Shown one piece after another: positions 21,121 to 60,137 of a DNA stretch of 64,000 bases. This DNA is from Geosiphon pyriformis uo1 (lineage: Eukaryota > Fungi > Glomeromycota): positions 331,527-395,526 of the forward strand of contig JAAOMT010000439.1 of the NCBI GenBank assembly GCA_016748015.1. Direction: 5' to 3'. The notes below the pieces were generated by a model that saw nothing but the letters and a program-made list of their open reading frames with translations, was not told the DNA's origin and did no database searches. Position 1 is the first letter of the stretch; the number at the start of each line of letters is the position of its first letter. The position numbers and the translations under genes were made by a program.

Positions 21121-21667
21121 TACATTTTGCGAAAATGCTTTTTAGTTTACATTAATCCTATTCATTTCGGAGAGTCCACTAAGCAAGATAGTGGATTGAG
21201 TAATTAAATTCGATTCGAATTGAGTTATATGCTTTCAAATCATAATAACAATAACAATTAATAATAATAAAAAATTAAATTTAATTACAATTAGATTTCT
21301 ATAAAAGAATACAATTAGAACATACAAATTATGTTCTATTTTAGAAATATTCTATTATAGAGTTTTATAATTATTATCAAATAAACTATATTTATTTATT
21401 AAATTAATTAATTATTATTATTATATTATTAAAATATTGATTAATTTTTATCTGTTTTTTAAAATATTTATTTATTTTTTTATATTCATATAATTTTTTT
21501 TTAAGTAAATTTTGGTTTTCTATACTAAAATTTTTTTTTTTATTATGCAATTAACAAGTGAAGCCCAACTGCTATCTAGTATATAGAACCAAACTAAGAG
21601 GCTCAAACTAAACACAGCTTATGCACTTTCTACATATGACTAACCATTAGGGCCAGACAAGACAACA

Positions 21668-24600: not shown

Positions 24601-26357
24601 GCAATGGATTAGGTGTTTATAAGAATCTCATCCCAATCGTATGGTTTAGGGATTATAGAAACTCAAGCTCTTTTCCACAAAACAGACACATTCTCTACTG
24701 TCAAACAAAAATTCAGTAAACCCAAAAGACACTTCAACACCATATCATCACAGTGCTTCCACAACTCATTAGAAATACCAGACAGACCAGCAGCCTTGCC
24801 ATCAGATAAATTGTTAACCACCAAAAGCAACTCATTCATATTGATCGAGCATATTATATCAGAAAAAGTATTATCTCTTACATAGTCCAATGGAGCATAC
24901 TAACAAGTCTAGACATCAGACACAACCGAAGACACAGTTTTTTTCCTAGTCCAGTCCTCCATGATTTCATTAACACCAAGTTTTACCATATCTGGCTCCA
25001 ACACCAAATCATTACCAATAACCAAATGATCAAGAACCACCTTATGGAAAGGCTGATCCAAAACACTTCTAATCATCACACCCTTATTAAAACAAAATTT
25101 TTCTATGTGGCACTCAATGGCCTTCCGAACAAAAGCTTCCTCAGCCAACTTTAACTCATATATTTTGGATTTTCTGTACTCCTTCCGAATTAATGACAAT
25201 TGCCTTAAGACATCCAAAGACTTGCTACCAACCCGGATCATATTGGCAATCATGGCAGTCTTATTACTATCCAGTTTGGCCCAGACATTGATAAGCTGAT
25301 TGATTCTTTGTAAATCACCCAATCCCAGTCCTTTAACAACTTTAGCAACTAACAGTTCCAACCTGAAAAACCTAGAAGAAAATTTGTTCCTGGAACACTG
25401 AAACTCACTGAACCAATGTTTTGAAAATATCCTATCTGCTGAGTCTACCAACACCTTTTCCAAAAGTACCCATATGTCATTCACATCAGCACAAGACAGA
25501 GCATCTGAAAACTCACCAGACACAGCCAAAAGCTTGGCAGAAGAGCAATCCTTAAACCAAGACTATTTAATCCCATCAGCAGTCTTAATGAGAAACTTCT
25601 AGTGATCTTTGTTAGCCTGCTTGCACAAGCTATTCAAATGGCCATCTAAAAGGCCACCCAAACCAATAGAGACAGAAACCGCACAGTGATCAGTGTCAAA
25701 AAAGTTGGAAACAGAGCCAACCTTATGATCAGTGACAGCAGATGCCAAACTCTCACTAACAAAAATGAAATCAATAGTCTTTTTCACCCCTCTAGAATTA
25801 CTCTATGTAGAATTACTGACTAAAGAGTGGCCAGCAAATGAGTTGACCAAACCCAACCCCAGACAGAATTTGAAACTCACACTTCTTTTAGATCCATTTT
25901 CATTGAAATCCCCACCCAAAACAATGAAACAGCTGGAGTTAACAGCCTTAGCAATGACAGAGTTTACTTTAAAAGCCTGACCAAAACAAATTCCAGAAGA
26001 TACACCTGCATATAAACCAATAATAGATACTGAAAGCTTATCTTTGAATAAGAGATGTACCACTATGACTCGATCAGGAACTTCCTCAATCTTAGTGACA
26101 TGACAGGCCAAAAAGTCGGCCATAATAATAACCACCCCAGCACCATGAAAACTCTTATCCAAACCCGAAGAAAAAATCCGCACACTGTTAAATTTATTCA
26201 CAATCCACAGCCTAGTTGAAGACCTTAACTTTGTTTTCATGATGATAGAAATCAAATTTCCAGAATCAAAATGCCAATACACAACATCCTCTTGTTTAGC
26301 AGGAATGTTGATGCCACGAACATTACATATAGCCATCTTCCAAACCAAGTCATTCAT
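21668..26357 (-). pseudogene. LINE ORF2 (APE-RT-RNaseH-Zn finger), disrupted
   Basis: Motifs CNVRG, LGGDFN, TIDFIF, TDH, DGLDQGEVFSPLLW, FVDDTI, FMDGS, SSTMAELQA, DSQLAID and CLLC..E..DHVFMC. Confidence 0.92.
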
Positions 26358-28218
26358 TGGGGTGAATAGGTCAAAGACAAACTCGTACCAGAACACAGGA
26401 GATCTAACTTCACCAGAATTGAACCAAACAAAGCCTCTAGAACAGACAACTTAGATTCCAAATCACCTACCTTGAAGGTAAAAACTTTTGAACCACTTGA
26501 ACTGAGAATGGCAGCAGACTCACTACCACCAGAAAAGGGAGGATCAACTGGAGCCAACACATCATCCAGAGCCATATCTGAATCCACAACTGGAGCCAAA
26601 GACATGGAGGCAGCCAAAAGAAAAGCACAAGAAGAAGATACCAATGGCACCAGTTCAATGAAACTCAATTTTTTAAGAATAACAGCAACTTGATCTGAAA
26701 GAATCTCCAAAGAGTGCTTTAACACCACTAAACAATCATTTAAACTGACAACTTGAGGACTAAAAGGGCCCAAAAAGAAAGGTGTGCCACCAGAAAGAAA
26801 ACCAGAACTGGAAGGGAAGCTACCAGAAGATGAGGCAATAGACACTACTTAAGCCCATGATTTGCCACCAAAGACAGCAGAACAAGAGATGGGAACATTT
26901 TTCTTGGCATACAATCTTGTCAGCTGAAGATGATTCGCACCAAAAGAAGGTTTTTTAAACAACCCAGAAGATATAGGAGGTAGAACAACAAAGGCATCAC
27001 ACTCAAGGGCTGAATGACTCAAATGGCCACATTTCCCACACCAAACCAAATCTAATCTAGCCCAAGAAAGACAAATGTCACCGAAAATAGACTCAGTAAG
27101 AAAAGCAGATTCCAACTCCTTGACAGATCCAAAGCCAACCACAGCACAACAAAATCTATTGCCAGTTTCCAATGAACAGTTGATAACACAAGTTTTTCTG
27201 CCAGCTTTTTCCAAAAGAGTACCAAGATCATGCGCAATTGTCTCCACTGGCAAAGTAAACAACAGCACTCTAAACCAATCCCTAGACACCCAGATATCAT
27301 GATCCCCCACTGCTTTAGCAACATGTACTGAATTTTTTTTGATCAGGAATGACTATTTTAAGGCCAACAGATTGGCTTGACTCGATTCGGCAAACTTCAC
27401 CACAGCCTTCTGCCACATGCTGATCAACTGAATCTTGATAGATTTAATTTCCCCAAAAGTGGATACTGCAGTGACAATTATCTCTTTTGGTGTATCTATG
27501 GGAATTTTTTTAATGACAATAGCCCGATCTGAGCGCATTCCTTGTTTTTGAAGATTGGTGTTTACAATGATCCCATTTTCTCTGGCCAATGATATGACCT
27601 TTTCCATGCTCTCTTCAGAAGTAAGGGTAGATCGAATAATCCCTTCAAACTTTGAGGGGGTAGTGGTCCCCCCAAAACCATTGACTGAAGAAAAAAATTT
27701 TCTAATTAGCCGGGTCTTCACCATTGCTGAATTACCTTTCACAGCTGAGAGATTAATATCCAATGCAAATGATTTCTTAATTGATACTTCCACAGAAGTC
27801 TTAATAATTTTTGGATTGATCCACTTTTTCTCCAGAGAGATAGGCAAGCGAGGAGGAAGCACAATTTCATCATTATCTATAGTAAAATTAGGAGAGCCAA
27901 GTGGAGAGCCAAACATTGCACCAGTATTAACACGTTTCACCTTGGGAGTAGTGGCAGCTGAGCCCAGCAGAGACCTCTCATTTATATCAGTCATGTCAAC
28001 ATTCTCATCATTATCTGACATACTATCCACATTAGAATATACACTATCACTAGGCTCAGATTTACTCAAAGCAATATCTTTTTTGTTACCAGAATGTTTA
28101 ATATTCCCAAGAACCACTTTTTTTTCTAAGCAAAAGAACCACTAGCAGGACCATGGAAAGCACTTTTGGATGTCTTTTTTTTGGACATATTACTGCTTGA
28201 AGCAGTTTTCAAATCCAT
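26354..28218 (-). pseudogene. LINE ORF1 (RRM-like plus CCHC), disrupted
   Basis: Fragments 27353-28117, 26849-27310 (CGKCGHLSHSALEC) and 26354-26845. Homologous to copy 1 ORF1. Confidence 0.85.
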
Positions 28219-28685
28219 AATGAAAGGATTATTTAAAAAAATGTTGAAAGATTTGACAAGAAAAAACAGAAAACTTCTTTTTCAGAAATGCACCTTTTTT
28301 GAGAATTTTGGAGGTAAGAGAGAAAGAAGTTTTTTTATTTTTATAATAAAATTTTTTTTGCTAATTGCTTTTTAAATTTAATTGTTTTTTTTTAATTCTT
28401 TATATGTTTTTGTAATTATAATTAAAACAAGTAAAAATTTTTCTAATTTTTTTTTTAAGTTATTAATTGTATTGGTTTTAATTTAAAATTATATTTATAA
28501 TTTTATTATTATTAAAAAATATTTCAGTTGTTAATAATTTATTAATTATTATAATATAATTTTTAAAATTTTTGATAAATTGTTAAATATATTTATAGTA
28601 ATTAATGGTTTAATTTCTTAAATTTTTAATTTTTAATTATAGAAAAAAATATATGTTTTTTGTTAATAGTTTTGAATTATAACAA

Positions 28686-29530
28686 TATTACAGATGATTA
28701 TTTAGGATCTCAAAGCAAATAACAAATCTGTAACTTGGTGCTTGATTGGTATTCTGGTGTTAATATCTAAAAATTTGATTGATCTAAAAGTTTTTGTATA
28801 GAGTTCTTTGTATAATAGACAGAGATTCAATAGTTGTTTCAATAGCCTCCCAGAATTGCAATTCCATCAAATTTTTTCTCAGCATGGTGGCTGGTAATCC
28901 TCCTGATAAGCTATCCTCAAATCTATGAGTGTTCTACCTTTGTTTTACAGGTTTTTTACCAGTCCCTATGACATCTATAACTTAGCACTTTAATTCTTGA
29001 TCAATTAGTCAACCAAAAAAAATACAAAAGAAATAAAAAAAAATAAAAAAAATAAAAAAATAAATAAAAGCAATTGCAAGTTAATATCCCATCAATAGTC
29101 ATGATTAAGAGCTATTGTTCCAGTATATTTAAGTATCAATTACTATTAACATGAAGTGTTAATAGTGGAGAGTAAATTAAGATAGTGAATAATTATTTAT
29201 TGATATTTGTGAATGGAAGATTGTTTAGATCAGATCTAAACTGGGAGATCCTTTTTTCTACTTTTAATACTACTGCTATATATATATAATTGAGATTTCC
29301 CCATTCCTCAATTCTTTATATCAAAAATCTTGGAATTCTTAGAATTCTGCAATTTCTTTGAAAGGAATCCTGGAATTTTGGAATCTTGTGATTCCTTGTA
29401 CAAGAATTTTGAAATTTCTTGAATTTTGCAATTTTTCTGAAAGGAATCTTAGAATTCTATATTTACTATGACTACTTCTAATTGACTAATTTATATGCTA
29501 ATATATACTTCTTATATTCTATGAGTAATA
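28686..29530 (-). repeat. 3' LTR of element A
   Basis: Homologous to 47051-47829. Termini TATTACA...GTAATA are mutated TGTTACA...GTAACA. The PPT complement ttattctctcttttt follows. Confidence 0.9.
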
Positions 29531-29543
29531 TTATTCTCTCTTT

Positions 29544-30173
29544 TTAATATTGAGTTCTATCAAGATTTTCTAATTTTAATTCTCTGTCTTTGAGTATTTC
29601 TTGAATTTTTTTTTCAAGAATTATTTGTGCTATCTTGTTCTGTAATTTTTCAAATTGTGCATTTGTTATTTTTTCTATCTGGTTAATAGTAATAAAGTTC
29701 ATTACTGGATTAAGTAAGATTTCTGGTCGATCTTGAAATCTAGTATGTAGTCAATAGATGGCTCTTGCTTGTGTTATTAGATTGTTTTTTCTCACAAATT
29801 GTTCTAGTTGTTACAGTATAACTGTGTCAAATAATCATTTTGTTTTATCCATGTATAAATTCTGAATGTTCAAGTGTCATCCTAGGTGAAAGTAACAAAA
29901 GTTTTTTGGAAATTATTGTATCCACCAATTCCAAGTTTCTATAGTCAACTCTTAGTATTGGATGACTTTCAGTTATGTTTCTATCACCACTTTCACTTTT
30001 GTAATTATTTTGTTCATGGTGTTCTCTATTTTCCTTTATATTTTGTCTTGTGGTCTTTTTCTGGTGTTTATGTATCAGATAATTTGTTGGTTGATTGTAA
30101 TTTCTATTTTTTGTTGTTGTATTAGTTAAAAAAGTTGTTGTGCTAGTAAGTAAATGCTGTCAGTAATCTCCAT
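29544..30173 (-). pseudogene. Element A ORF3 (unknown protein, 210 codons, env position)
   Basis: ATG 30173 to TAA 29544 is 630 nt. Reads MEITDSIYLLAQQLF...QLEQFVRKNNLITQARAIY*LHTRFQDRPEILLNPVMNFITINQIEKITNAQFEKLQNKI. Homologous to ORF3 of B and C. Contains internal stops. Confidence 0.7.
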
Positions 30174-30229
30174 TTCTACTGTCTTTTGTCATGTATACTG
30201 TGTCTTTATATATTCTTTTGGTTGTTTAA

Positions 30230-31608
30230 TTTTACATGTTTGGTTCAATAATTATGATTGATTCTAAATCTTGTAAAATCTTATCTGGTTTGACTAGTAT
30301 TTCTTGTACTCCTAATTGTAGAATATTACTAGTGGATGATATTGTTGTATTGTGGTATGGCTTCAGTTGATCTTTATGTGCTGCTTTGGTTAAGAATTTG
30401 TTGTTCAATCTTAATTTATAAGCTCCATTTCCAAGAATTTTTTTTATGTGAAATAGTTCATCCCATTTGGGGTCAAATTTTCCACTCCATTGTTTTTCTG
30501 CTTTGGTATAATATAAAAGTACTTTGTCTTCAATCTTAAATTCAACTAGTTTCTCTAATAGTTGGTTATTGTGTCTTTTTTTTTGTTTTTTCTGTAACTT
30601 TTATATATTATCAGCTACTCTTTGCCTTTTGTTTTCTAGTGTTTCCTTTAAGGCATATGTTTTTCTTAACAATGTTCTTTGGAAATTTTCTTCTGTTATT
30701 GGTTCTGTTGGATATGTTTGTACTTTTATCTCCACTGGTAGTGTTGCTGTTTTACCATATACTAATTCAAATGGTATTGTTTGTGTAGTATCTTGCTTCA
30801 TTGTCCAATAAACAAATAAAACTGATAGTATGAACAGATTCTATTTATCTTGATTTTCTTGACTGATTTTGGCAATTGCTTTACATAATGTTCTATTGAA
30901 TCTTTCAACTAATCCATTGGTTTATAGATGATATGGTGATAACAATGATCTTTTAATTCCAAATCTTTGACTTAATTCTTCTAATGTTCTATTTACAAAG
31001 TGAGTTCCTTGATCCAATAGCAATTTTTTTAAACATTTGTGTTAACAAATCAAGTCTTAATAAACGAATTCAACAATGGATTCTGCATTTGCTCTTTGAA
31101 TGGCTTTTGCTTTTGGCCATTTTGTGAGATAATTCATGATTACTGCAATATATTTGTTGCCTTTGTTGGTGATTGTTAATGGTCTGACTAAGTCAATTCC
31201 AATGTGATTGAATGGTTGTTTCACTTTGATTGGTCTCAGTAGTTCACTGAGTTTTGTTCCTCCTTTTTTCTGACAAGCATCACAATTTTGAACATATTAA
31301 ATAATGTTTGGATATATTAATAGCCAATAATATCTTTTTCTGGTTCTTTCTATTGTTGCTTCTTTATGAAAATGTCCTGCTGTTGGATCTGAGTGCATAT
31401 TAAATAATATTGTCTCTTTTTTTGGTTCTGTAATTACTCTGGTTGATTGGTCTGAATTCTTTTTGTTCTTCTGATAAAGTATATTTTGGTGATTGATAAA
31501 ATATTTTGATTGTTGTTTTATGTTATTTTGTTTTTTTTGAAATAATTTTTCCTTGAAAAATTGAGTATTTATATAATATTGGAGTTGTTGGTATTTTTGT
31601 ATATTCAT
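30230..31608 (-). pseudogene. Element A integrase (separate ORF), disrupted
   Basis: MNIQKYQQLQYYI..., HHCC domain (MHSDPTAGHF...YYW...C..C), then rve core and PFELVYG. The 3' end is approximate. Confidence 0.85.
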
Positions 31609-31673: not shown

Positions 31674-32276
31674 TGTTACAGTTTAAAAATTTAGCAAAAA
31701 GAATCATAAAAATAATACAAACTATTCAATCATAATATAGCACAGTAATAATCTTAGAAAGGTAATGATTAACATAGTAGCAAACACCATCTCGCGATAG
31801 TGGCAAGCACCAGTTCACAATAGCAGCCAACACCAACTGGTGATAGCAGCAAACACCAGGTTGAAATATCAAAAANNNNNNNNNNNNNNNNNNNNNNNNN
31901 NNNNNNNNNNNNNNNNNNNNNNNNNNNNNNNNNNNNNNNAATTGATAAAAGCTTTATTGTGAGAATTAGAAAAGCACTAAAGACTATTAACATTCTGTGT
32001 TTCTAGATTAGAGAAACACATCAGGCAATTGCAAGAATAGCCTTAGAGAAGACCCCAAACAGTGGGTAGATTTCAATTCAGCCTCTGAGAAGAAGTACAT
32101 AAATACACACAACAATCAAGAATTAAAGAATAACTTACATCACAACAGTAAAAAGAAAGCCTTCAGTGTAACAGTGACATTATCACACAAATAGAATTGA
32201 GGAATTCATGAAAGACTGATTGCAATTAAAGTGGGATATCTGCAATTAAATATAACAAGAAAACTATTCTGTAACA
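31674..32276 (+). repeat. 5' LTR of element B (contains an undersized N gap)
   Basis: Near-identical to 39930-40796. The 64 Ns stand in for about 330 bp present in the 3' LTR. Confidence 0.93.
31876..31939. other. Assembly gap (N run)
   Basis: 64 Ns. Confidence 1.
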
Positions 32277-32296
32277 TTTGGTGAACCCTATGAAGA
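32277..32296 (+). promoter_or_regulatory. Primer-binding site of element B
   Basis: ttTGGTGAACCCTATGAAGA directly after the LTR end. TGG is complementary to tRNA CCA. The cognate tRNA was not identified. Confidence 0.75.
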
Positions 32297-35200
32297 AAGA
32301 AAATCAAAAAGGAAATAATAATTAGCAATAATTCATTGCTAAAAAGGAAAAGACAAAAGTGGCGACAAAAACCCCTAATCTTACTGTTCTTGAATTCTGC
32401 CATGCTATTTACACACAAAATCAAAGTGATCTTGAATTACCAGAAGGGTGTTGTCCAGCAGAATCTGCCCTCACTTATTATATTAACGCCAGAATAAATT
32501 ATTATATAGAAAAGGAAGAAGAACCACATGATGCAAAACTTGGATTGTATAGAGAATTATCACAATACACTACAAAAGAAGTAGCAGTAATAGCCGCAAC
32601 TATTGTCAAAATCCATCGAGAAATTGAGCAATACGCCAACGAAAATTTTCCAATATTCACAGGAAACACTAAGGAACGCACCAACAAAACCAAAAAAAAT
32701 TTAGAAACTAATCAGGAAAGTAACCAGCAAAAACTAGGAACACCAGCTCAAACGCCAAAGAAAACTGTCACTCAATCAATAAAGAAACAACGTATTTATT
32801 CACCAGAAGATAAATCATACCATTTTTCACCAGAAAATAAGATACAAATTCCATTAGGAGCTGTATTATCATCAACATCAACTCCACAAATGCCAAGAAC
32901 TCCTAGTTATATTGATAAAATTAAACAACGTAACTGGGGAGACATACCAATTACAGGAAGATATTCATCACTATTCCAAAACCCTCTTTTTCAGCCAAAA
33001 TTTAGAACGGGGTTTGAAAACCGTGAAGAGGAGTTTGAATCAGAATCCAAAAAAGAGACCAGTGAAAAAACAATCACAAGACCAGTCACTGGAACAAGCA
33101 GCCAGTCCAGAAACCAAAAAACTCGTGATCAAGAGGAAGAACCAGATATAAGGGAAGCCACCTTTAGGAATGCTCAAGAAAATATCATCCCATCTCCTCT
33201 TAGACCAATAAACTCACCAGCAGAAAATGGCAACAAAATGACCACACCATACATTGCAAGACTAACAGATTTCTCAGAAGAGGAAGAAGAAACGGACGTG
33301 CACACATGGCTCAGAGAAGCACAAAAAGCCATCCAGGCAAATAACTGGAATGACCAAAGAGCAATTTAAACATTACTTTTCTTCCTGAAAGGCACAGCCG
33401 ACTCGTGGTATCAAAGCCTGAAAACAAAACCCACGAGCTTCGCCAAATTTAAAAATGCACTTCTGGAGTATTTTAGCGACTCAAACACCATAATCCAACT
33501 ACAGAACGAATTCAATACTATCAAGCAAAATACCGGTGAAACTGTCACCCAATATCTTGCTCGATTCAATCAAATTCGCCATCAGATTGAAGCGATTGAA
33601 CAAGGATACTACACTGATTCTCAGGTTTTAAATCAGTTTATTAGAGGATTAAAAAGCAGCATTTTAGGAAGAGTACGCCCTGCCCATTTTAATTCCTTAC
33701 CAAAAGCCATTACACTTGTCAGAGTCCTTAAATCGGCTGAAAAAGAAGCTAACCATAGTCAAATGGTTAACATAGTAATGGAGGAAAATAAGACAGAAAC
33801 ATTAGAGAAAAGAGTAACGTAATTAGGGGAGGAACTCTCTAAGAAAATAGAAAGTTACCTCATCCTGGATCTGAGAAAAAATACATACCAACCACTTCAA
33901 AAATGCAGCCAGGAAGTCAGCGACAGTCGAAATAATTGCTCATTGTGCCAGGAATTCAGAACAGAAACACGCGCCTGCCATTTTTGCAAATGTGTAGGAC
34001 ATTTGATTAGTCAATATCAAACGTGAATGATGCAAGAAGCACGTGAAAATAATTACTACGCGCCACCCCAAATACCCAGAAACCAGTACACGCCAATACC
34101 ACACCAATATCCCACCACATATCAAAATCATGGAGCTTACCAGCAACAGCCCATGATAGCCAATCCGAATTGGCGTCCTGAGGCCCGAAATCAGCCCATG
34201 TGAAACCAGAACGCGTTGGTCCAGAGGAATCCAAACTGCGCCAGAACCAATCAGCAAACCAATCCAAACTACCAAAATTATCAACAAACTTACCTTAATA
34301 TACCAGAAAACCTAATCATCAGAAACAATGATGATAGAAACATAAACAGAACCAAGAATTCCTCCAAATTGAGCCAGACAATACCACCAGCAGTTGCCAC
34401 CAAAGATAGCAGCCTCGCAGCTATTTTTCCTTTTGAATTAGAGGAAAACGAGGCTATGTTCAGTGGAGCAGTATTGGACAAAAAACGCCCAATCACTACT
34501 ATGTATACGGAAATCACTGTAAACAATACCCCAATCAAACTTATCTTAGACAGCAGATCCGCTGGAAGCATCGTAACGCTTCAACTAGTAAACCAACTGG
34601 GTTTCAAAGTTGATCGTGCCACGACATCCCAAATCATAACAGCCGATAGAAGTACAAAGCTGCCTCATGGCGAAATTGACTCATTCCCTTTCGAAATTAA
34701 TGGCATAGTAATACCTACAAAAGTATTAGTAATGGATGCTACACAATATTAAGCATTAGTAGGAAATGACTGGCTAACAAAAGCCAATGCCACTTTAGAC
34801 TGGACCACCCAAGAGCTTCTGATCAATTATAATGACCACCAAGCCAAAATTCCAGCCACCTGTGGCCACTTCCAAAAACCCAGTGCCAACCAAAGACCTA
34901 CCTTCAAATTTGAGGAAAATCCAGCATTACCAGCCATCAAAACCTATCAGCTCTCTTGGGCTGATGACTAAAGAACAGGACTACCAGCCGTACCAACGTG
35001 GACCAGCGAAGAAAGATCTGAATAGAACCAAGTAAGTTTACAAAGAAACCACCAGCGATGCAGACCAAAGCTAGAATGCTCAGTTTGCAAGAAGAAACTC
35101 TTGTCTATGACTGCATGCAGCGCACCGGACGAAGACCCAAGAAATCCCACCCACTACTATTGTAACCATTGTAACAAAGAAAAATACGGTTACCCAGAAA

Positions 35201-38067
35201 GACACAGAAAATGGGACAAGGAACCATGCCTTGCTTGTGGAGAACCATTACCAAGAGGGTGCGACTGGAACGACTTACCAGGCAGAGGAGGAACATGTGA
35301 CGCAATTTGCCAATACACAATCCTCATCTGTGACTGGGTAAGAGGAGGAACGCCGTTCGAAGCAGTGTTCAACAGAGCGTTAAAAAAACTACAGCACTAC
35401 CCACATGACGAGAACAAGTTGTACAACACCACACAAGCCAAAGTAAGAGAAGGAACCACCAAAGAAATATGACATTGGAAAGAGTCAGCCAAAGTAGCCG
35501 ACGAAGTCGCCAACTACAACATGTTTGACCCAGTGGACAAATTTCAGGACTACTACCAACAACTATGCCTCACTCGACAAGAGCAAGAACAATACCTCAC
35601 CCAAATCAACACTTACCTCTGTGAAAACTGTCTCATCCCGTGCCAAAATCAGTGTTGTGAAGAGTATCAAGATGAAAGAGACTTAAAAAGAAAAATGGAA
35701 ATTGAGAATCAGCAGTCTCAAAATCAATCAATAAATCAACAAGACTCACCTGATGGTCCTGAGTCAGAAAAATTTGTAGCCTATACTGACCTAGAACAGG
35801 TGACCAACATCCGATACTTTGACAATGGGCACTTAGGAATAATACCCGAAAGAGCCCATCTAACTAATGCCGGATTCGATCTACGTTATCCAGAAGACCA
35901 ATCCACAACATTACCACTCAGGAGCATCACCAAAATTGACCTAAAAATAGCAGTTGAAATTTTACCAGGAATAATGGTTCAAATGGTGTCATGATCAAGC
36001 TTTGCGAAAAAAGGAATAAGCGTTCAAGGAGGAGTAATTGACTCTGGATACACTGGAAATTTGATGGTTTTGCTATAAAACAATTCAGAAAAACCTTATA
36101 CCATTGAATCTAAGGAAAAGATTGCACAAGCAATTTTCCTACCATTGGTAAAAATTGGGAAATTTGTGCCAGTGGAAAATCGTGAGGAATTGTCACAAAC
36201 AACGAGAAGAACTTTTGGTTTCAGATTGACAGGAAAAGGAATTGAAGCGAATTTCGCTGAAACAATAGAGGAAAAAGGTGAAGTAATTAAAAATGAGTGG
36301 TCCATCACGCTCCTACTATATGGAAAATCAGAAATAAGAATAAAAAGGACAATTAAAGAAAAAGACCTAATATTTGAGCCCTATCCAGAAACTTGCCAAC
36401 AGTTTCTCATAGGACTTACTAACCTTTTTATTCCAGCTAATAAAGCTCAGTGGATAAAAATTCCTATCGCAAACACCACAGAAGAACCCATCTACATTCT
36501 GGAAGATACCATCATTGGATACCTCAGAACGGAGCTAGAAAATGCGTCAACACTACAAGAAATTCTAAATTTCCCAGAAATCGCCCTCTACTGTGAACTC
36601 ACTTCAATAAATTGGCAACAACCGTTAGAATGCTATCAATTTACACCAGAAGAATTGGCCAAATTAAACATTGGAACAATGGATCCTGACCAACAGCGAC
36701 AATTAAAAGCATTAATTTTAAAATACTCTGATATATTTTCAAAAAATGGCGAATTTGGAAGAACCAACTTGGTTCAACACCAAATCCCCACTGGAAACGC
36801 CAGACCTGAAAAACAATGCACTTACCGTGTCCCACCAATGGAACATAATTTTATCAGAGAAGAAGTCCAAAGCATGTTGAAAAAAGGAATAATACAACCA
36901 TCAATGAGTCCATGGTTCTCACCAGTTGTTTTAGTAAGGAAAAAGAACGGAAAAATTAGATTTTGCGTCGACTATCGCAAACTAAACAGCAAAACAACCA
37001 AAGATTCATACCCAATACTGTTAATTGACGAAATCTTCGACGTTTTTGGAGGAGCAAAATGGTTTTCTATACTGGACTTGACCAGTGGGTACTGGCAAGT
37101 GGAAATGGACCCAAAGGACAGACATAAAACAGCATTCACAACACAAAATAGCAATTATGAGTTCAATGTAATGCCATTTGGATTAACAAACGCTCCTGTG
37201 ACATTCCAAAAACTAATGGACATAATTTACTCCAGAATCCTGTGGCAATCTGTTGTTGTCTACTTGGATGATACAAATGTTTTCTTGTCAAAATTCATGA
37301 ATCATCTCCAACATTTACAACAAGTTTTTGAGAGATTGAGACATGCTGGACTTAAACTAAATCTAGAAAAATGTTTCTTTGGGAAAAATGAGCTAGTATT
37401 TTTAAGACACGTAGTTGGAAAAGATAGAATAAAACCAGATCCATCAAAAATAGACAAAGTGAAAAATTTTCCAGTACCTTGAAACGTTTTAGAAGTTAGA
37501 AGCTTTTTAGGACTCGCATCTTACTACCGCTGCTTTGTAGAAAACTTTTCAAACATTGCCAAACTCCTTAATTACCTACTATCTAAAAATGTGAAGTTTG
37601 AATGGACTGAAGCACAACAAAAAGCTTTTGAGTACCTTAGACAAAAGCTCATTGAATCACCAATAATGATCTATCTGAATTTCAACAAGAAATTCATTTT
37701 GGCCACAGATGCCTCTGGAACTGGACTTGGAGCCATTCTGTCACAAAAAGATGATAATGGAAGAGAACGTGTAATTGCTTATGCCAGCAAAAGTCTCAGT
37801 ATGGCAGAACAAAACTACGCAGCATATGAACTTGAATGCTTAGCAGTAGTCTGGAGTTGTGTTCACTTTGACACATATTTACGGTACCAACCCTTTGAGA
37901 TTACGACAGATCATAGAGGTCTGGTCTGGTTAAATAACAAGAAAGCGCTAAAAGGAAAATATGCCAGATGGTCACAAATGTTAGCACCATACAATTATAT
38001 TATCAAATACAAAGAAGGTACCAAAAATGTTAATGCTGACTGTTTGTTAAGAATGAGACACACATAA
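32290..38067 (+). pseudogene. Element B single-frame polyprotein: N-terminal domain - Gag(CA, CCHC) - protease - Cys-rich domain - dUTPase - RT - RNase H
   Basis: ORF fragments starting at 32359, 34216, 35101, 35521, 36145 and 37591 are all in one frame and are separated only by point stops. CA: W..E......NNW.D...FLKGTADSWY. PR: LILDSRSAGS. RT: RFCVDYRKLN, LDLTSGYWQV, MPFGLTNAP, YLDD. RH: TDASGTGLGA, ELECLAVVW, TDH, NADCL. Confidence 0.93.
35836..36236 (+). other. dUTPase domain within the element B polyprotein
   Basis: All five trimeric dUTPase motifs are recognisable: AGFDL, (R>*)SSFA, GVIDSGYTG, KIAQ and RRTFGFRLTG (from RGxxGFGSTG). Confidence 0.92.
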
Positions 38068-38096
38068 AAATCACCAACCCACCCGCCACAACAACA

Positions 38097-39369
38097 ATGA
38101 ACAACCACCTTTACAAAAACCTCAGCCAATACTTGGAAACACTACAAATAGATGAAGAAATGCCAGTAAAAGAGCTAATTAAGCTCCAAAAATTAGCAAA
38201 ATACTATTTCATCTAAAATCACATACTTTATTACCAGAATCGACAAAATCCAGATAATCCATTAAGAGTTATAACCATGGATGAAAAAGAAACTATTTTA
38301 TTTAACATGCACTCAGATATTCATTCAGGCCACTTTGGAAAAACAGCAACCATTCAACGTGCAACTAGCCATTACTATTGGCCAAAAATGAGTTCAGACA
38401 TAATCCAATACATAAGAAATTGTGACCCATGCCAATAAAGAGGAAGAGCAAAAACAACGGAATTATTAAGACCAATAAAAGTTGAACAGCCATTTGACAG
38501 AATCGGAATTGATTTAGTTGGACCTTTACCAATAACAACAAGAAACAACCGTTATATTGCAGTAGCCATGGACTATCTCACCAAATGGCCAGAAGCTAGA
38601 GCTATTAAAACAGCTGATGCTATTTCCGTAGCTCAATTCGTACATGAAGACTTAATTTGCTGACATGGATGTCCACAAGAATTGTTATCAGATCAAGGCA
38701 CACACTTCGTAAACAGCACCTTAAAAGAACTTAGCCAAAAATTTGGAATCAAGCGACCACTGTTATCACTATACCACCCTCAAACAAATGGATTAGTTGA
38801 AAGATTTAATCGCACATTATGCAAATCACTGGTGAAAATTAGTAACGAACATGAAAAAGAATGGGATTTGTTCATACCAGCAGTACTACTAGTATATAGA
38901 ACAGTAAAACAAGATATTACACAATTCACACCATTTGAACTAGTTTATGGAAGAAAAGCCACATTATCCGTTGAACTTACTATCTCAACTTATCCAAGTG
39001 ACACTATTACGGAAGCAACATTCCAGGAAACACTACTTAGAAGAACATACAAATTAATAGGAACTTTAGAAAACAAAAGAAAAAAAGCAGCACAAAATAT
39101 TGAACAATCACAAGAACAACAAAAAGTGAGACATGATAACCAGTTACCAGATAATATAATTAGCTACAAAATTGGAGATAAAGTATTGTTGCATCGTACA
39201 AAAATGGAAAAACAGTGGAGTAAAAAATTTGATCACAAGTGGAATGGACCATTTTATATTCACAAAATACTTGGAAATGGAGCATACAAGCTAAGACTAG
39301 ATGATAAAATATTAAGAAAAGCAGCACATAGTAACTGGCTGAAATTCTATTACAGTAAACCAGTAATAA
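38097..39369 (+). pseudogene. Element B integrase (own ATG, different frame from RT-RH); runs into an N gap
   Basis: MNNHLYKNLSQYLE..., MHSDIHSGHFG...YYW...CDPCQ, IGIDLVGPLP, DYLTKWPEA, LSDQGTHF, YHPQTNGLVERFNRTL and GPY/F motif WNGPFYI. Confidence 0.92.
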
Positions 39370-39643
39370 NNNNNNNNNNNNNNNNNNNNNNNNNNNNNNN
39401 NNNNNNNNNNNNNNNNNNNNNNNNNNNNNNNNNNNNNNNNNNNNNNNNNNNNNNNNNNNNNNNNNNNNNNNNNNNNNNNNNNNNNNNNNNNNNNNNNNNN
39501 NNNNNNNNNNNNNNNNNNNNNNNNNNNNNNNNNNNNNNNNNNNNNNNNNNNNNNNNNNNNNNNNNNNNNNNNNNNNNNNNNNNNNNNNNNNNNNNNNNNN
39601 NNNNNNNNNNNNNNNNNNNNNNNNNNNNNNNNNNNNNNNNNNN
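39370..39643. other. Assembly gap (N run)
   Basis: 274 Ns hide the integrase end and ORF3 start of element B. Confidence 1.
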
Positions 39644-39916
39644 ACAACTATCCAACTATTAGAACCTTTCATTGGAAAAACCAACACTATATTCCATTCA
39701 AAAACAGTTTACAGAATTTTCAAAGCATTTGAAAACTGTTACAAATTATTGTTGGACCCAACCATAAACATAATAACAACCAACAGTATTACACGTCTTA
39801 CCAACTCGCAATTTCAAGAATTACAACAACAAATTAATAACATAGTATTGAACCACTATAGTAACTTAAAATTTAATGAAGAAATTAACTTCGATTTCGA
39901 CGGAGCTCAATCTTGA
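39644..39916 (+). CDS. Element B ORF3, C-terminal 90 codons (5' part lost in the gap)
   Basis: Open frame TTIQLLEPFIGKTNTIFHSKTVYRIFKAFENCYKLLLDPTINIITTNSITRLTNSQFQELQQQINNIVLNHYSNLKFNEEINFDFDGAQS*. The stop abuts the PPT. Confidence 0.72.
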   Translation, partial: TTIQLLEPFIGKTNTIFHSKTVYRIFKAFENCYKLLLDPTINIITTNSITRLTNSQFQELQQQINNIVLNHYSNLKFNEEINFDFDGAQS

Positions 39917-39929
39917 AAGGAAGGGATAA
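39915..39929 (+). promoter_or_regulatory. Polypurine tract of element B
   Basis: GAAAGGAAGGGATAA immediately before the 3' LTR TGTTACA. Confidence 0.85.
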
Positions 39930-40796
39930 TGTTACAGTTTAAGAATTTAGCAAAAAGAATCATAAAAATAATACAAACTATTCAATCATAATATAGCACA
40001 GTAATAATCTTAGAAAGGTAATGATTAACATAGTAGCAAACACCATCTCGCGATAGTGACAAGTACCAGTTCACAATAGCAGCCAACACCAACTGGTGAT
40101 AGCAGCAAACACCAGGTTGAAATATCAAAAAAAAAGTATTTTCTCGTAGAACTACAAACATGTATATATACAGTAGTTTTAATATTGGGAAATAATCAAT
40201 CAAGTAATAAAAATCATAACTTATCAAGCAACAGATCCAATTTTATCCAACAAACTTCACTTTAAATCATACTTTCAAATTAAATATCCCAAGAAACCTT
40301 TAAAAATCAAAAAGAAATGAAAAAGAATATTTAAAACGGAACTATCACAATCCAAAGTATTAAGAAACTTACTTGTATTATTTATTGAATGAAACTATCA
40401 TTCATCAACTGAATCCCTTGGAAGAATAATCCTTGATCAAGATTATTCACGTTGTTACTAATTAATAAAAGCTTTATTGTGAGAATTAGAAAAACGCTAA
40501 AGACCATTAACATTCTGTGTTTCTAGATTAGAGAAACACATCAGGCAATTGCAAAAATAGCCTTAGAGAAGACCCCAGACAGTGGGTAGATTTCAGTTCA
40601 GCCTCTGAAAAGGAGTACATAAACACACACAACAATCAAGAATTAAAGAATAACTTACATCACAACAGTAAAAAAAAAGCCTTCAGTGTAACAGTGACAT
40701 TATCACACAAATAGAATTGAGGAACTCATGAAAGACTGATTGCAATTAAAGTGGGATATCTGCAATTAAATATAACAAAAAAACCATCCTGTAACA
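39930..40796 (+). repeat. 3' LTR of element B (867 bp)
   Basis: TGTTACA...TGTAACA termini. Direct repeat of 31674-32276. Confidence 0.95.
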
Positions 40797-47050: not shown

Positions 47051-47829
47051 TGTTACAGATGATTATTTGGGGTCTCAAAGCAAATAACAAATCCATAACT
47101 TGGTGTTTGATTGGTATTCTGGTGTTGATATCTGAATATTTGATTGATCTGAAGGTTTTTGTGTAGAGTTCTTTGTATAATGAACAGAGATTCAATAGTT
47201 GTTTTAGTAGTCTCTTGGAATCACAATTCTGTCAAATTTTTTTCTCAGTGTGGTGGCTAGTAATTCTCCTGGTAAGCTATCCTCAAATCTATGAGTGTTT
47301 TACTCTTGTTTTACAGGTCTTTTACCAGTCCCTATGACGTTTGTAACTCAGTGCTTTAATCTTTGATTAATTAGTCAACCAAAAGAAATACAAAAGAAAT
47401 AAAAGAAAATAAAGAAATAAACAAAAGCAATTGCAAGTTAGTATCCTATCAACAGCCGTAATCAAGAGCTATTGTTCTAGTGTAGTTAAGTATCAATTAC
47501 TATCAACATGAAGTGTTGATAGTGGAGAGTAGATTGAGATAGTAAATAATTATTTATTGATATTTGTGAATGAAAGATTGCTTAGATCAGATCTAAACTG
47601 GAAGATCCCTTTTTCTACTTCTACATAATTGAAATTCCCCCATTCCTCAATTCCTTACATCAGGAATCCTGGAATTTCTGGAATCCTGCAATTTCTTTGA
47701 GAGGAATCCTGGAATTCTGGAATCCTGCAATTCCTTGTACAAGAATTCTAGAATTCCACATTTACTATGGCTACTTCTAATTGGCTAATTTATATGCTAA
47801 TATATACTTCCTATATTCTATGAGTAACA
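47051..47829 (-). repeat. 5' LTR of element A
   Basis: TGTTACA...GTAACA termini. GGAAT(C/T)CTG tandem array at 47660-47760. Confidence 0.92.
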
Positions 47830-48158: not shown

Positions 48159-49123
48159 TATTACAGATAATTATTTGGGACATTGATACAAATAACAAAC
48201 TCATAACTTGGTGTTTAATAAGTAATATGATTGGTAATCTTTAAAGATTTTTGTGTCTGAAGATTTTTGTATCTAAAAGTTTTGGTTGAATTTTTTGTAT
48301 AATAAACAGAAATTTAATATTAATATCCTTTGGTGATATTTTTAGTTTTCTTTTCAACCCACAAATTAATATGTGTTGTTATCTGTAGTTTTTCAGAATA
48401 TTTATTTTATTAATTTTTTTTTAATTTGATGGCCAGTTTCCTAATAAGCTATTTTTTAATTCCAAGTGTCTATCCTTATTCTTGGGTTTTTTACCAGTTT
48501 TTTCCCTAACATTAGTATTTTGCTTTAATTTTTTTAATCAGTTAGTAAACAACAAACAAAAATAAATAAAAATAAAAATAAAAAATAAAAATAAATTAGT
48601 ATCTTGTCAATAGCTGTAATTAAGAATTATTGTTCCAGTATAATTAAGTATTGGATGCTATCAACATTAAGTGTTGATAGAATAGAAATAATCAATATTT
48701 TCTAATTAAGTAATGATAACATAGATTCAAGTGGTAATAAATAATTTATTAATATATAATGTGAATTTGAAACTTCTTCTAACTGTTTTTTTAACTAAAG
48801 ATTCTAACATTCTGTTTTTTCTGCTTTTAATACTTTTGCTATATATACATAATTAATGTTTTATAAAATCTCACACATTTGTGAACAATGTGCTATAATT
48901 TCTTAAACAATGCTTATATTGCTAAGCAATATGTTTTAATCTACTGATATTGCTCACATTATTAAGCAATGTGTCATAATTCATTGAAATTGCTTATATT
49001 GTTAAGCAATGTACTATAATTTACCAGTAATGTGCTCACATGCTCAATATTATTCTCTTATTGGTCTATTTTTTCTATTTGTTTTTTCTACTATTTTTCT
49101 TGTGCTCTTTTCTATAAGTAATA
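48159..49123 (-). repeat. 3' LTR of element C
   Basis: TATTACA...GTAATA (mutated termini). Homologous to 59192-60137. Confidence 0.85.
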
Positions 49124-52100
49124 TGATCTCTTTTTTTTTAATATTAAGTTTTATCAAAATCTTTATTTTGGATTAATTCTGCTACTTTTTTTTTAATACT
49201 ATTTGTTTAACTCTGGTTTTTATATTTTCTACTTGTGAGTTGTTCATTCTTTCTTACTGGTTAATAGTTATTGTTTTTATTTTTGGATGTAGTAATATTT
49301 CTAAATAATTTGAAATATGGTATATAGTTGATAAATTGTTCTAATGTGAAACAATGAGTTTGTTTTCTTTCTGATAAAGTCTTTAATTTGTTGTATTATT
49401 TCTTGATTGAATATTTTTTTGAATTTGTCTGTATATAGTTTTTAAATATTCAGCTTTTGTTCTAACTAATAGTAATAGTATGATATTGGAAATTGTTCTG
49501 TCTATTGTTTCCAACTTTTTTTTGTTAGTTTCTTTGTTAGAATAATTATAAGTATTGTCCCAAAAGTATTCTTCACTTTTTTTATTATTTTATTTGACCA
49601 ATGTTTTGTTGAATTCAGTAGTTATTGATATGGTGTATTTTCTGCTTTTTTTTTTGGTGTTTTGATAGCAGATTGTTTGGTGGTTAATAACAATTTCTAT
49701 ATCTAATTGTTGTTAATTTACAGCTTAAAATAATTGTTGACCTATTGAATAGATGTGATCTGGGATTTCCATTTTTCTGTTGTTGCTTTTATTACATATA
49801 CTGTGTTTTTTTATATTATTTTGGTTAATTACTTTAATTTGGTTGCATTAATAATTATAATTAGTTCCAGATTTCATAGAATTTTATTTGGTTTGACTAA
49901 TATTTTTTGTATTTTTAGTTATGAAATATTATTGGTAAATGATAATACTATATTGTGATATGATTTCAGTTAATCTCCATATACTGTTTTAGCTAAGATT
50001 TTATTGTTCTATCTTAGTTTATAAGCTTTATTTTCTAGAATTTCTTCAATGTAAAATAGTCTGTTCTATTTGAAGTTAAATTTTTTACTCTATTGTTTTT
50101 CTATTTTGGTACAATATAAAAGTACTTTGTCTTCAATTTTGAATTCAACTGGTTTATCTGGTAATTAGTTATTATGTTATTCTTTTTGTTTTTTTTGTGA
50201 TTTTTGAATATTATTAGCTGTTTTTTGTCTTTTGTTTTTTAGAGTTTTTATTAGTTCATATATTCTTCTTAGCAATGTTTTTTGTAAATTGGCTTCTGTT
50301 ATTGGTTCTATTAAATATGTGTTAATGTTTATCTTAATTGGTAATATTGCTGTTCTACTATAAACAAGTTCAAATAGTATTGCTTATATAATATCTTGCT
50401 TCATTGTTTGATAAGCAAATAGTACTGATGGTATAAACAAATTTTATTCATTCTGGTTTTTTTGGCTAATCTTGACTATTGTTTTATACAATGTTCTGTT
50501 AAATCTTTTGACTAAACTATTTGTTTGTGAATAATATGGCAATGATAATAGTCTCTTAATTTCAAATTTTTGACTCAATTCTATTTGTGTTCTGTTTACA
50601 AAGTGAGTTTTTTGATCTGATAATAATTCTTTTGGACATTCATGTTAACAAATCAAATCTTGATAAACAAATTTGGCTACAGATTCTGCATCTGCTCTTT
50701 GAATTGCTTTTGCTTCTGGTTATTTAATAAAATAATTCATGACTACTGCTATATAACAATTGCCTCTGCTGGTTATTGTAAATAATCTAACTAAGTCAAT
50801 TCTAATTTGATCAAATAGTTGTTTCATTCTAATTGGTCTTAGTGGTTCACTGGGTTTTGTTTTTTTTTTCTCTAACAAGCATCACAATTTTAAATGTATT
50901 AGATAATGTTTGGATACATTAATAGTCAATAATATTTTTTTTTAGTTCTTTCTATGGTTGCTTCTTTATGAAAATGTCCTGCTGTTGGATCTAAGTACAT
51001 GTTGTATAGTATTGTTTTTTTCTTTGGTTCTGTAATTACTCTGAATGATTGATCTGAATCTTTTTTGTTTTTCTGATATAGTATATTTTGGTAAATAATA
51101 AAATATTTTAATTGTTGTTTTATGTTGTTTTATTTCTTTTAAGATAATTTTTTCTTAAACTGTTAAGTATTAATATAATGTTGTAGTTGTAGATATTTTT
51201 GTATGTTCATCTTTTGTTATATTTTTGGAATTGAAATGTTCTTAGATTTGTTTTATTTGTGACAAACCATTGGCATTTCTGTTTTCTTTTCTCTTTTTAT
51301 AATGTACTGTATAATTAAATAGTGAAAGTTCTATTTTTTATCTTGTGTGGTGATTATTTCTAAATTTTTGTTTCTGAATTAATGTCAATTCTTTGTGATC
51401 AGTGTATATGTTATACTTTTAATTTAAGTATTTTTTCCATTTAATAACAGCTTAATAGATAGCCAAATGTTTTAATACTAGAGTTTTATAGTTTTTTTCA
51501 GCTGGACTTAAGTTTTGGCTAATATATATTACTAGATGTTTTCTTCTTTCTGGTCTTTTTTGAAACAGTACAGCTCTCAATGCTTGATTTGATGCATTAG
51601 TGGTAATAATAAATGGCTTGCTATGATCCAGATAAATTAGTACTGAAGCTTGAATGAGCTTTTTTCTTAAAATATCAAAAGCTTTTTGTTGAATTTTTAT
51701 CTATTTGTATTTTATATTCTTGGCTTAAAGCTGGTAAAGTAGTTAAGCCAGTTTGAAGAAGTTTTGGATAAATTAGTGGTAGTATCTAGTGAATCCCAAA
51801 AATGTTTTTAATTCTGTGAGATTTGTTGGTATTGAAAAGTTCTTGACAATCTCAATCTTGTTTGAATTGGTTTTGATGCTGTTTTTACTTACATGTTTTA
51901 AAAATTTCAGTTTTTTTTTGTCAAAAAAACACTTGTTTGTATTAGTTTCAATTTGGCTCTTTTTAGTTTCTCAAACACTTGTTAAAGATGGTAAAAATAA
52001 TCATTAAATGTTTTTAAAAACATATTAGTGTTATTCAAGTATACTATTACTAATTTCTATAGTAGTCTAGTATAAACAATTTTCATAAGCTGTTAAAAAG

Positions 52101-52996: not shown

Positions 52997-54881
52997 TGTT
53001 ATCCGAGTAGAAAAACCAATCCAAAGTTATAAAGAAACATAACCAAAATGTGACATAACACAGAATAGTGTGCAATAATATTGGATAATGCATTATAACT
53101 TAAAATAATACAGAATAATGCATTATAATGTGGAATAACACAAAATAACATGTAATAACACCAAATAACATATTATAACATAATATAATTAGCAATAGCA
53201 TAAAAAAACAAAACAATCAAAAGCAATCCTATAGAACAAAAAAAATATATAAAAACAAGTAGCTGTAAAAGTTAGAAAAACATCCAAAAAAAAATTAATC
53301 TTTCAGAATTAATTAAACTTTTAGAGTCAATTAGACTCATAGATCATAATTATTAAATACTCCTCCTTTTAAGGATGGTTGCTATCAACTGAAATGGAAT
53401 TATATCAATAAAATATCTCTTTAATTTTTCAAATCCATGTTATTATCTATTACTTAATCTGCTGGCACAATAGCTTTTGATCACAGCTATTGACAAAACA
53501 CTTATTTCTTATTTTATTTTCTTTATTTCTTTATTTTTCTTTTATTTTTTTTTATTTTATTTTATTTTATTTTATTTTATTTTTTTTATTTTTTCTTGTG
53601 GAGTAACAACATAATAAAATTGACTGTCTGAGAATAGACTTTATAATAGTCTGGTAAAAGAGAAAAACTCTCTCTAAGTTTTAGATATTAACATTATCTT
53701 AGTAGCTTACCAGAAGAGTAAAAAAATAACACCAGATCTTAATAACTGTGCTCATTAGCTCAGAGAAAATAGTTTACATTTATAAGAAGTTGCAATCAGC
53801 AAAAGCCAAACTTCCATGTCTTATAACCAAAAAACTCTATGGTGTTACAGGTAATTATTTCTGTTGTGGAATTGAATAACAAACCCATAACTTGGTGCTC
53901 AAAAGCTACTTTCGTGGATGATGTGCGGAAGGTATGGTATCTGAAGGTTTTGGTTGATCTGAAGGTTTTGTTGTGGAGTTCTTTGTATAATAGACAGAGA
54001 TTCAATAAGGTTGATAGTGGTTGTATTCTCAAGTGGTTTTCCCAATTTCTTTCTCAGCATAGTAGCCAGATTTAGTCTGGCAGTCATGCCCTTCTGGTAA
54101 GCTATTCAATAATATATATAAAATCCTACCCTTATTTCTGGATCTTTTACCAGACTATCCTTGACATCAATAACTCAGCGCTTAATCTTTTAATCAATTA
54201 GTATATGACAACAAAATCAAAGAAAGAAAGGAAATAAAATAAAAAAAATAAAAATAAAAAAAATAAAGAAAATAAGCCAAGGCAATTTGGTTCGTTAGTA
54301 TCTCGTCAATAGCCATGATCAAGAGCTATTGTTCCAGCATGGTTAAGTAGCAATTACTATCAACATGAAGTGTTAATAGTGAATAGTGGATTGAAATATA
54401 GAATAATTATTTATTTGATGATTGGTTTCTTGGCTAAGGATTCTGTAATATCCATTTTGTTTTTTCTGTTTCTAACACTACTACTATATATACATAATTG
54501 GGATTCCTCAATTCCTCGATTCTTCACAACAAGAATCCTGGAATCCTGCGATTCCTTTGAAAAGAATCCTGGAATTCTGAAATTCTGCAATTCTTCATTG
54601 AAAATCCTGAAATTCCTGGAATTCTGTAATTTCTGAAAGGAATCCTGGAATTCCACATTTACTATGCTTACTTCTGATTGGCTAATAATTATGCTAATAT
54701 ATTTCCTATATTTCTATGAATAACAATGGGTAAATTCATAACAATTTAAAAGACTTTCAAAAACTGATAATACTGATACAACAAACAAGTCTACTGAAAA
54801 AAAATCATTAAAAGCTTTCTAAAAACCCAAATCTTAAGCACCAAATGTTATTATCATATACCACCAAGTTTATCCATAACA
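52997..54881. mobile_element. Solo LTR D (~1.0 kb, a different family) inserted in element C and itself interrupted by solo LTR E
   Basis: TGTTAT...ATAACA termini. TSD ATGT at 52993-52996 and 54882-54885. The flanks rejoin into the post-dUTPase sequence seen intact in A at ~42570-42610. Confidence 0.85.
53843..54725 (-). mobile_element. Solo LTR E (883 bp, related to the A LTR)
   Basis: TGTTACA...ATAACA termini. TSD ATGG at 53839-53842 and 54726-54729. Carries the same GGAATCCTG array as the A LTRs. Confidence 0.9.
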
Positions 54882-59191: not shown

Positions 59192-60137
59192 TGTTACAAA
59201 TGGTTACTTGGAATGTTAATATAAATAACAAACTCATAACTTGGTGCTTAATAATATGTATGGTTGGTAATATCTGAAGATTTTTATGTCTGAAGGTTTT
59301 TATATCTGAAAATTTTGGTTGAGTTCTTTGTATAATGAACAGAGATTTAATGTTAATATTCTTTGGTGATATTTCTAATTTTTTTTTCAACTTATGAGTT
59401 GGTATGTGTTGTTGTTTATAGCTTCTCAGAATATTTATTCTGTTAATTTTTTTTAGCTTAATGGTCAATTTTCTGGTAAGCTATCCCTCAATTCTGAGTG
59501 TTTATCTTTATTCCTGGGTCTTTTACCAGTCCTTTTTTTAATGTTAATACTTTGTTTTAATCTTTTTAATCAGTTAATAAACAACAAACAAAAATAAATA
59601 AAAAATAAAAAATAAAATAAAATAAAAGAAATTAGTATTCTGTTAATAGCTATAATCAAGAGTTATTGTTTCAGTGTAGTTAGGTGTTAAATGCTATCAA
59701 TATTGAGTGTTAATAGAGTAAAAATGATTAATATTTTCTAATCAAGTGATAATAACATAGATTCAAATAATAATAAATAATTTATTGATATGTAATGTGA
59801 ATTTGGAACTTTTTCTAACTGTTTTCTTAATTGAGGATTCTAACTGTGTGTTCTAGCTGTAAATTCTGTCTTTTTTGCTTCTAATACTTTTGTTATATAT
59901 ACATAATTGATGTTCTATAAAATCTCATACATTTGTGAGCAATGTGTTATAATTTCTCAAACAATGCTCATATTGTTAAATAATATGCTCTAATCTATTA
60001 ATATTGCTTATATTGCTGAGCAATGTATCATAATTTACTAGCAATGTGTTCATATGCTTAATACTATTCTCTTATTGGTCTATTTTTCCTATTTGTTTTT
60101 TTTATTATTTCTTTTGTGCTTTTTTCTATAAGTAATA
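59192..60137 (-). repeat. 5' LTR of element C
   Basis: TGTTACA...GTAATA termini. Adjacent PBS. Confidence 0.87.

Follow-up and report, generated by a model that had tools for sequence, protein, structure and literature searches.

A conserved third gene in the env position of Ty3/Gypsy retrotransposons of Geosiphon pyriformis, a possible DNA-binding regulator

An open reading frame in the env position of a retrotransposon raises two questions, namely whether it is a gene and what its product might do for the element. We address both for a frame of ~210 codons, hereafter ORF3, which an initial annotation had reported in three divergent Gypsy elements (A, B and C) of Geosiphon pyriformis, and for which it had suggested an accessory role such as anti-silencing, movement within a coenocyte or integration targeting. 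The window analysed here is the whole 64-kb stretch of DNA in which the three elements lie. Sense ORFs between pol and the 3' LTR, termed aORF-3S, are a known kind (PMC7264820; rotifer ORF3s, PMC5408684). ORF3 belongs with them, being a frame in sense orientation that stands apart from pol, precedes the 3' LTR and is shared across copies and families; the described cases have the same position and orientation, occur across element families and are likewise distinct from pol (PMC7264820, PMC5408684). ORFs of this kind are mostly unexplained, and those described in these two sources are either membrane proteins, be they Env-like or transmembrane, or enzymes, namely esterases and exonucleases, whereas ORF3 of Geosiphon is a soluble protein with a predicted helical core that matches no family.

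The three host elements are Ty3/Gypsy retrotransposons with LTRs, PBS, PPT and the pol order PR-RT-RH-IN. They encode gag, protease, dUTPase, RT, RNase H and an integrase with an SH3-like tail, and the solved structure nearest to the RT is that of Ty3 (E 2.5e-50). Element B, which is nested in A, carries gag, protease, a dUTPase-like region, RT, RNase H, integrase with the SH3-like tail, and ORF3. The parts of the elements are as follows.

28686..29530, minus strand: 3' LTR of A, with a TTGT target-site duplication
29531..29545, minus strand: PPT of A, overlapping the ORF3 stop
30232..31014, minus strand: 3' part of the integrase of A, with a Tf2-type SH3-like tail and no chromodomain
31674..40796, plus strand: element B, nested in pol of A, with a GCAT target-site duplication
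31674-32276 and 39930-40796, plus strand: LTRs of B, 97.1% identical
47051..47829, minus strand: 5' LTR of A (88.8% identity with the 3' LTR), followed by a PBS-like site
48159..49123, minus strand: 3' LTR of C
53843..54726, minus strand: solo A-family LTR, inserted in C, with a CCAT target-site duplication
59192..60137, minus strand: 5' LTR of C (83.8% identity with the 3' LTR)

All three clean insertions have target-site duplications of 4 bp (GCAT at 31670-31673/40797-40800, TTGT at 47830-47833/28682-28685 and CCAT at the flanks of 53843-54726), and the flanks of C show no matching duplication. Among Gypsy elements 5 bp is more usual. The LTRs are 780-970 bp long, with a TATA box ~240 nt in (A and C), and the 3' halves of the A and C LTRs hold sense open stretches of 97 and 87 codons after correction for transitions; these have no clear shared frame and no similarity to ORF3 (best E 0.05 among 13 stretches). 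The dUTPase lies between protease and RT (A, 42254-42850, minus strand; B, ~35900-36150, plus strand; C, 54967-55272, minus strand). It is assigned by Pfam in A (E 3.5e-9), has homologous DNA in B and C, and is preceded by a long Cys-rich insert at ~35026-35900. The rotifer elements with an ORF3 also have a dUTPase in pol (PMC5408684).

Within the LTR pairs of A, B and C, 241 of the 252 differences are transitions, and the copies are therefore decaying by C-to-T change. The fraction of cytosine sites affected is 0.78 at CG, 0.35 at CT, 0.33 at CC and 0.27 at CA. Decay in all contexts looks like the outcome of a RIP-like process or of broad methylation. In G. margarita, one paper found no RIP signatures, and the transposable elements of R. 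irregularis are described as CG-methylated and as yielding small RNAs at their loci (10.1101/2021.03.30.436303).

Against this background of decay, the ORF3 copies of the window read as follows.

29544..30173, minus strand: ORF3-A, from ATG at 30173 to TAA at 29544, 209 codons plus stop in a single frame
39644..39916, plus strand: visible 3' part of ORF3-B, 90 open codons (39644-39913) and then TGA
49138..49772, minus strand: ORF3-C, from ATG at 49772 to a stop at 49138, with at least 8 internal stops and 3 frameshifts

Re-reading of the letters returned the coordinates, the N-termini and the motif shared by A and B as they had originally been described. ORF3-A is interrupted by ten internal stops (6 TAA, 4 TGA), the frameshifts of ORF3-C lie near 49636, 49307 and 49185, and the 5' part of ORF3-B is inside an N gap. 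Frameshift-aware identity is 46% over 203 codons between A and C, 39% over 64 codons between A and B, and 41% over 66 codons between C and B. A profile built from 39 proteins from outside the window, run over all six frames of the 64 kb, picked exactly three loci, those of A (E=9.7e-48), B (E=1.8e-28) and C (E=2.2e-21), the next-best stretch having E=0.22. ORF3 is thus present in all three window elements of its Gypsy lineage, as homologous frames just as the initial annotation had proposed, and in each of them its stop overlaps the PPT, again as noted there. A single-frame search with the ORF3-C translation gave no match, which is uninformative because C shifts frame three times. Two of the original claims hold in part. 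The D(G/R/K)(A/T)Q-type tail is found in A, B and C but is not a mark of the whole family, since D-x-x-Q-Y occurs in subfamilies A, B, C and E and not in F and G. Similarity at the protein level despite divergence of the DNA is borne out for B and for the database subfamilies, but A and C are also ~67% identical in DNA.

The family extends well beyond the window. A single 90-aa query, searched with HMMER against 1.84 billion representative sequences, gave 21 matches, 19 of the 20 looked up being hypothetical proteins of G. pyriformis. A profile search raised this to at least 203 database members, all 120 of the 203 that were listed coming from G. pyriformis, and a search among longer proteins (663-2000 aa) gave 12 matches, every one a G. 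pyriformis model. Among the matches listed, ORF3 therefore appears to be confined to this species; distant relatives in other Glomeromycotina are possible, given that 83 of the 203 matches are unlisted and that the HMMER query was a single sequence of 90 aa. There were no relatives in the metagenome contigs, viral contigs or phage records searched. One bacterial match (E 0.008, among 401 genomes of a cyanobacteria-centred phylum sample) was a glycosyltransferase-like ORF and was set aside as chance, and none of three further bacterial genomes had a match. We also dropped a repetitive match, P0019, which fits no subfamily.

The remaining members form six subfamilies (A, B, C, E, F and G), 14-46% identical to one another except for F and G (66%). 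Full-length open gene models exist for F (13 models of 239-245 aa, colinear), G (2, of 235 aa) and E (1, of 244 aa), and in subfamily B a database gene model contains an open ORF3 stretch of ~218 aa, to which ORF3-B of the window is 92% identical. The chance of such a stop-free run is ~1e-9 at the local base composition, the models being taken with their exon structure as annotated. In 16 gene models from subfamilies A, E, F and G the integrase tail is joined to ORF3, and the position of ORF3 is therefore fixed in these four. The integrase tail is 40-67% identical across the subfamilies (74-78% between F and G), and ORF3 diverges faster than integrase. No description of ORF3 was found in the literature searched, and by these database and literature searches the family is undescribed.

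The initial annotation had also argued for past selection on ORF3, and had named dN/dS as a means of checking it. The pairwise NG86 pN/pS is 0.46-0.52 for ORF3, 0.34-0.48 for integrase, 0.47-0.56 for antisense controls and 0.43 for an LTR control; as the ratio is the same in ORF3 and in non-coding LTR, we rejected it as a test of selection. Differences between A and B in a DNA-guided alignment number 44, 23 and 49 at the first, second and third positions, and transversions are enriched at the third (p=9e-4), compared with p=0.1-1 in three LTR controls, although one non-coding LTR control has a third-position excess when all differences are counted (p=0.013). The bias between A and C is weaker (position 3 against position 2, p=0.011). 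Among 5,748 contigs of one DNA run that aligned to the A region, five of the ten stops of A are found in the 40 rows listed, each as the minority state, with a sense codon in 75-100% of the depth. Together with the full-length open gene models of four subfamilies, which uphold the argument for past selection, these results mark ORF3 as a true and conserved gene that follows integrase and precedes the 3' LTR. The three window copies are decayed remains of one gene family.

What kind of protein does this gene encode? The conclusion that ORF3 is an accessory ORF and not an Env stands. Neither a signal peptide nor a transmembrane segment was found in any of eight ORF3 sequences, the highest 19-residue Kyte-Doolittle mean being 0.27-1.18, and the sole Env row in the search of PDB sequences has E=0.31 and gives no match on ORF3. 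Pfam assigns SH3_Tf2-1 alone at the integrase end and no chromo family on ORF3. Searches of Pfam, PHROG, NCBIfam and PDB sequences returned nothing for ORF3 at a curated cut-off or with a convincing score, the best PHROG hit (E 1.4e-4) being to a family of unknown function. The Foldseek comparison advised at the outset likewise gave no significant match, as no hit of the ORF3 models in the PDB or viral libraries reached E<=0.001. The full-length model has a mean pLDDT of 64.9, with low confidence for the N-terminal helix-hairpin and the linker, and the 130-residue core is modelled as all-helical with a pLDDT of 87.1 and a pTM of 0.79. ORF3 is thus predicted to have a small N-terminal helix-hairpin and a basic linker in front of the all-helical core. 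Its pI is 7.1-9.7 in five of six subfamily representatives and 4.9 in the partial A model. Two parts of the predicted structure can be placed on the DNA.

29604..29950, minus strand: predicted helical core of ORF3-A, approximate limits
~29846-29738, minus strand: predicted candidate helix-turn-helix in ORF3-A (helix, G/R-K-x-N turn, basic helix)

The turn Asn of the candidate helix-turn-helix is invariant across the ORF3 subfamilies. In a wide structural search the best score of the core was Z 5.1, to a 59-residue helical piece of PNPase, with no clear winner, and Z under ~13 is common for helical bundles. ParB-family DNA-binding domains make up four of the best 50 rows for the core and span nearly all of it (Spo0J, Z 4.4, rmsd 4.9, 96 residues aligned; KorB, Z 3.9, rmsd 4.7, 95; SopB, Z 3.9, rmsd 4.1, 90, and Z 3.8, rmsd 4.2, 89), and five of the best 50 for the full model; a second-look structural alignment reached at best Z 3.9 and gave no clear fold. 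The predicted helix order may resemble that of ParB, Spo0J, KorB and SopB over 89-96 residues, at scores that are all below significance. The ESM Atlas neighbours of ORF3 include DUF1016_N and HTH_ParB clusters at 0.87-0.89, scores below 0.9 being leads only. Pfam DUF1016_N (PF17761) is hit by two of seven ORF3 proteins at E 0.03-0.12 (12.9-15 bits, the cut-off being 32.8), with a similar pattern of Y-x-I-G, turn and basic helix in ORF3, ParB-type domains and DUF1016_N. When ORF3 was compared by hhalign with the N-termini of 76 DUF1016 proteins, the expected motifs fell into register, but the match lacked significance (probability 1.4%, P=0.037). Cross-searches with HMMs of ORF3 and DUF1016_N gave E>=0.18. 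An implausible FtsQ match in NCBIfam (E 3.5e-4) scores better than the DUF1016_N lead, so weak matches of this size are at noise level. ORF3 also differs from both families in having its own N-terminal helix-hairpin and in lacking the nucleotide-binding domain of ParB and a nuclease domain. We regard the helix-turn-helix as a convergent lead, in which each fold score is below significance.

The DNA around ORF3 offers clues to how it might be expressed, in particular two boxes upstream of the start codon.

30205..30212, minus strand: TATATAAA box, a candidate internal promoter, in the spacer of 58 nt that separates the integrase stop (30232) from the start codon of ORF3
49809..49815, minus strand: TATAAAA box upstream of ORF3-C, homologous to the box in A

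The TATATAAA TATA box lies ~40 nt before the ATG of ORF3-A; since the boxes of A and C are homologous, they are not independent observations. Such a box occurs in 4-7% of 60-nt internal windows, and the spacer is closer to the LTR core promoter than 95-99% of windows. No variant at >=20% was seen in the spacer TATA box among 701 contigs, but A/T sites rarely change here, and the dominant C-to-T decay spares A/T bases. An alternative to the internal promoter would be splicing to an AG that lies a few bases 5' of the ORF3 ATG. Each LTR family has U3 repeats of its own: GAATTC/GATTCC-type units form an array 5' of the LTR TATA in the 3' LTR of A, the 3' LTR of C has four imperfect palindromic units (ATTGCTYA...TRAGCAAT type) at ~40-nt spacing, and the LTR of B has CACCA units. 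Inverted repeats in U3 number 7, 9 and 15 in the A 3' LTR, the solo LTR and the C 3' LTR, against shuffle means of 1.1-1.5 (overlapping matches being counted repeatedly), and this excess over shuffles is absent in B and in the 5' LTR of C. Repeated U3 motifs are common in LTRs generally.

The mechanism that we consider most likely, though tentatively and at somewhat short of an even chance, is that ORF3 is a family-specific DNA-binding regulator or anti-silencer of its own LTR. The protein would be expressed from a short RNA started at the spacer TATA box, or by splicing to the AG before the ATG, and would enter nuclei, where a ParB/KorB-like helix-turn-helix in the core may bind family-specific U3 repeats. 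Bound ORF3 could then activate the LTR or shield it from cytosine methylation. Protein and binding site would drift together, which would explain the fast divergence of ORF3. Of the functions suggested initially, the evidence favours a DNA-binding regulator, anti-silencing included, over movement, which is disfavoured because ORF3 lacks membrane features, and over integration targeting, which is disfavoured because ORF3 is a separate ORF and not a domain of integrase.

There are precedents for such a way of working. Tas/Bel1 of foamy viruses is encoded by a small gene that lies close to the 3' LTR and is served by an internal promoter, and the protein binds and activates both that promoter and the LTR (PMC4929722); the likeness would be in the proposed working mode only. 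No sequence or fold link of ORF3 to Tas/Bel1 was found, the host of ORF3 is a fungal Gypsy element without env, and binding and activation are hypothetical. A second comparison is with VANC, the anti-silencing proteins of VANDALs, which are Mutator-like DNA transposons of Arabidopsis. The targets of VANC are family-specific repeats, and the proposed logic for ORF3 would be similar: a fast-diverging element protein, short family-specific repeats and a methylating host (PMC5735166). In contrast to VANC, demethylation by ORF3 is hypothetical, and no homology between the two was detected. A more specific version, in which a fungal Gypsy lineage acquired a helix-turn-helix gene of the bacterial ParB/KorB type and put it to use as a self-encoded, family-specific activator or anti-silencer of the LTR, driven by an internal promoter, is in our view rather doubtful. 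If true, a system of the Tas/VANC kind would have arisen by convergence in a retrotransposon, and it could help to explain how LTRs fill ~40% of the Geosiphon genome despite heavy cytosine decay. Should ORF3 bind and protect its own LTR, whatever its origin, a fungal LTR retrotransposon would encode its own transcriptional regulator, and ORF3 would offer a way into the conflict between transposon and host in Glomeromycotina. Apart from any mechanism, over a hundred G. pyriformis models annotated as hypothetical proteins are a transposon gene and not host genes, and ORF3 is a soluble, conserved family that evolves fast; many of its copies are open, its core is modelled with confidence and it has candidate sites to bind.

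A regulator of the LTR is not the only protein that would look like this. ORF3 could be an RNA- or protein-binding suppressor of host RNA silencing, or a cofactor of RNA export or packaging, with no recognition of LTR DNA. The basic linker and mostly basic pI, the fast divergence, the PNPase helical domain as top structural row and the small RNAs reported at transposable element loci in R. irregularis (10.1101/2021.03.30.436303) are consistent with such a role. Nevertheless, the PNPase match spans only 59 of 130 residues, no RNA-binding family was matched in the domain searches and the whole-domain matches that recur are DNA-binding domains, and we consider this role unlikely.

Somewhat less likely still is a role as cofactor of integration, in which ORF3 would stand in for a chromodomain and tether the pre-integration complex to chromatin or other elements. 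The integrase does end in an SH3-like tail without chromodomain, elements are nested in the window (B in A, a solo LTR in C), and a DNA-binding fold would fit here too. However, ORF3 is separate, in another frame and with its own start context, and nesting is expected in a genome of which LTRs make up 41.2% (PMC11952901).

The env position of ORF3 would also suit a structural or movement protein without membrane association, by which particles travel between the nuclei of a coenocytic hypha, and in Drosophila cell-to-cell spread in the absence of Env is attributed to small accessory ORFs (10.1101/2025.03.14.642691). The Drosophila sORF2 is described there as a transmembrane protein, whereas ORF3 has low hydropathy in eight of eight sequences and no signal-like N-terminus, and no capsid, movement or Env fold was matched, which makes movement improbable. 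Finally, the region might be read as non-coding 3' sequence common to the elements, or as a captured fragment that died long ago and has no role for them. The broken or incomplete state of all three window copies could point this way, as could a pN/pS of 0.46-0.52, taken as equal to the 0.43 of the non-coding control. This reading is largely refuted and very improbable in view of the models that are open from start to stop in four subfamilies (21-30% identity, F and G set aside), the codon-position bias between A and B and the confident core fold.

The window also contains a much older and distant Gypsy remnant (~60600-63400, minus strand, with an LTR at 63485-64000), the integrase of which is 22-40% identical to the others. 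It had no ORF3 match in the profile scan, and may lack the gene or have been truncated by C. Two decayed LINE-like elements (1933-8754, plus strand, and 21531-28345, minus strand), 69% alike, encode endonuclease and RNase H domains, and their long 5' ORF has no Pfam family. Between them lies an island of likely host genes (10686-19578), among which Pfam recognises a G-patch protein (E 1.2e-8) and a NUSAP-like ORF (E 0.002).
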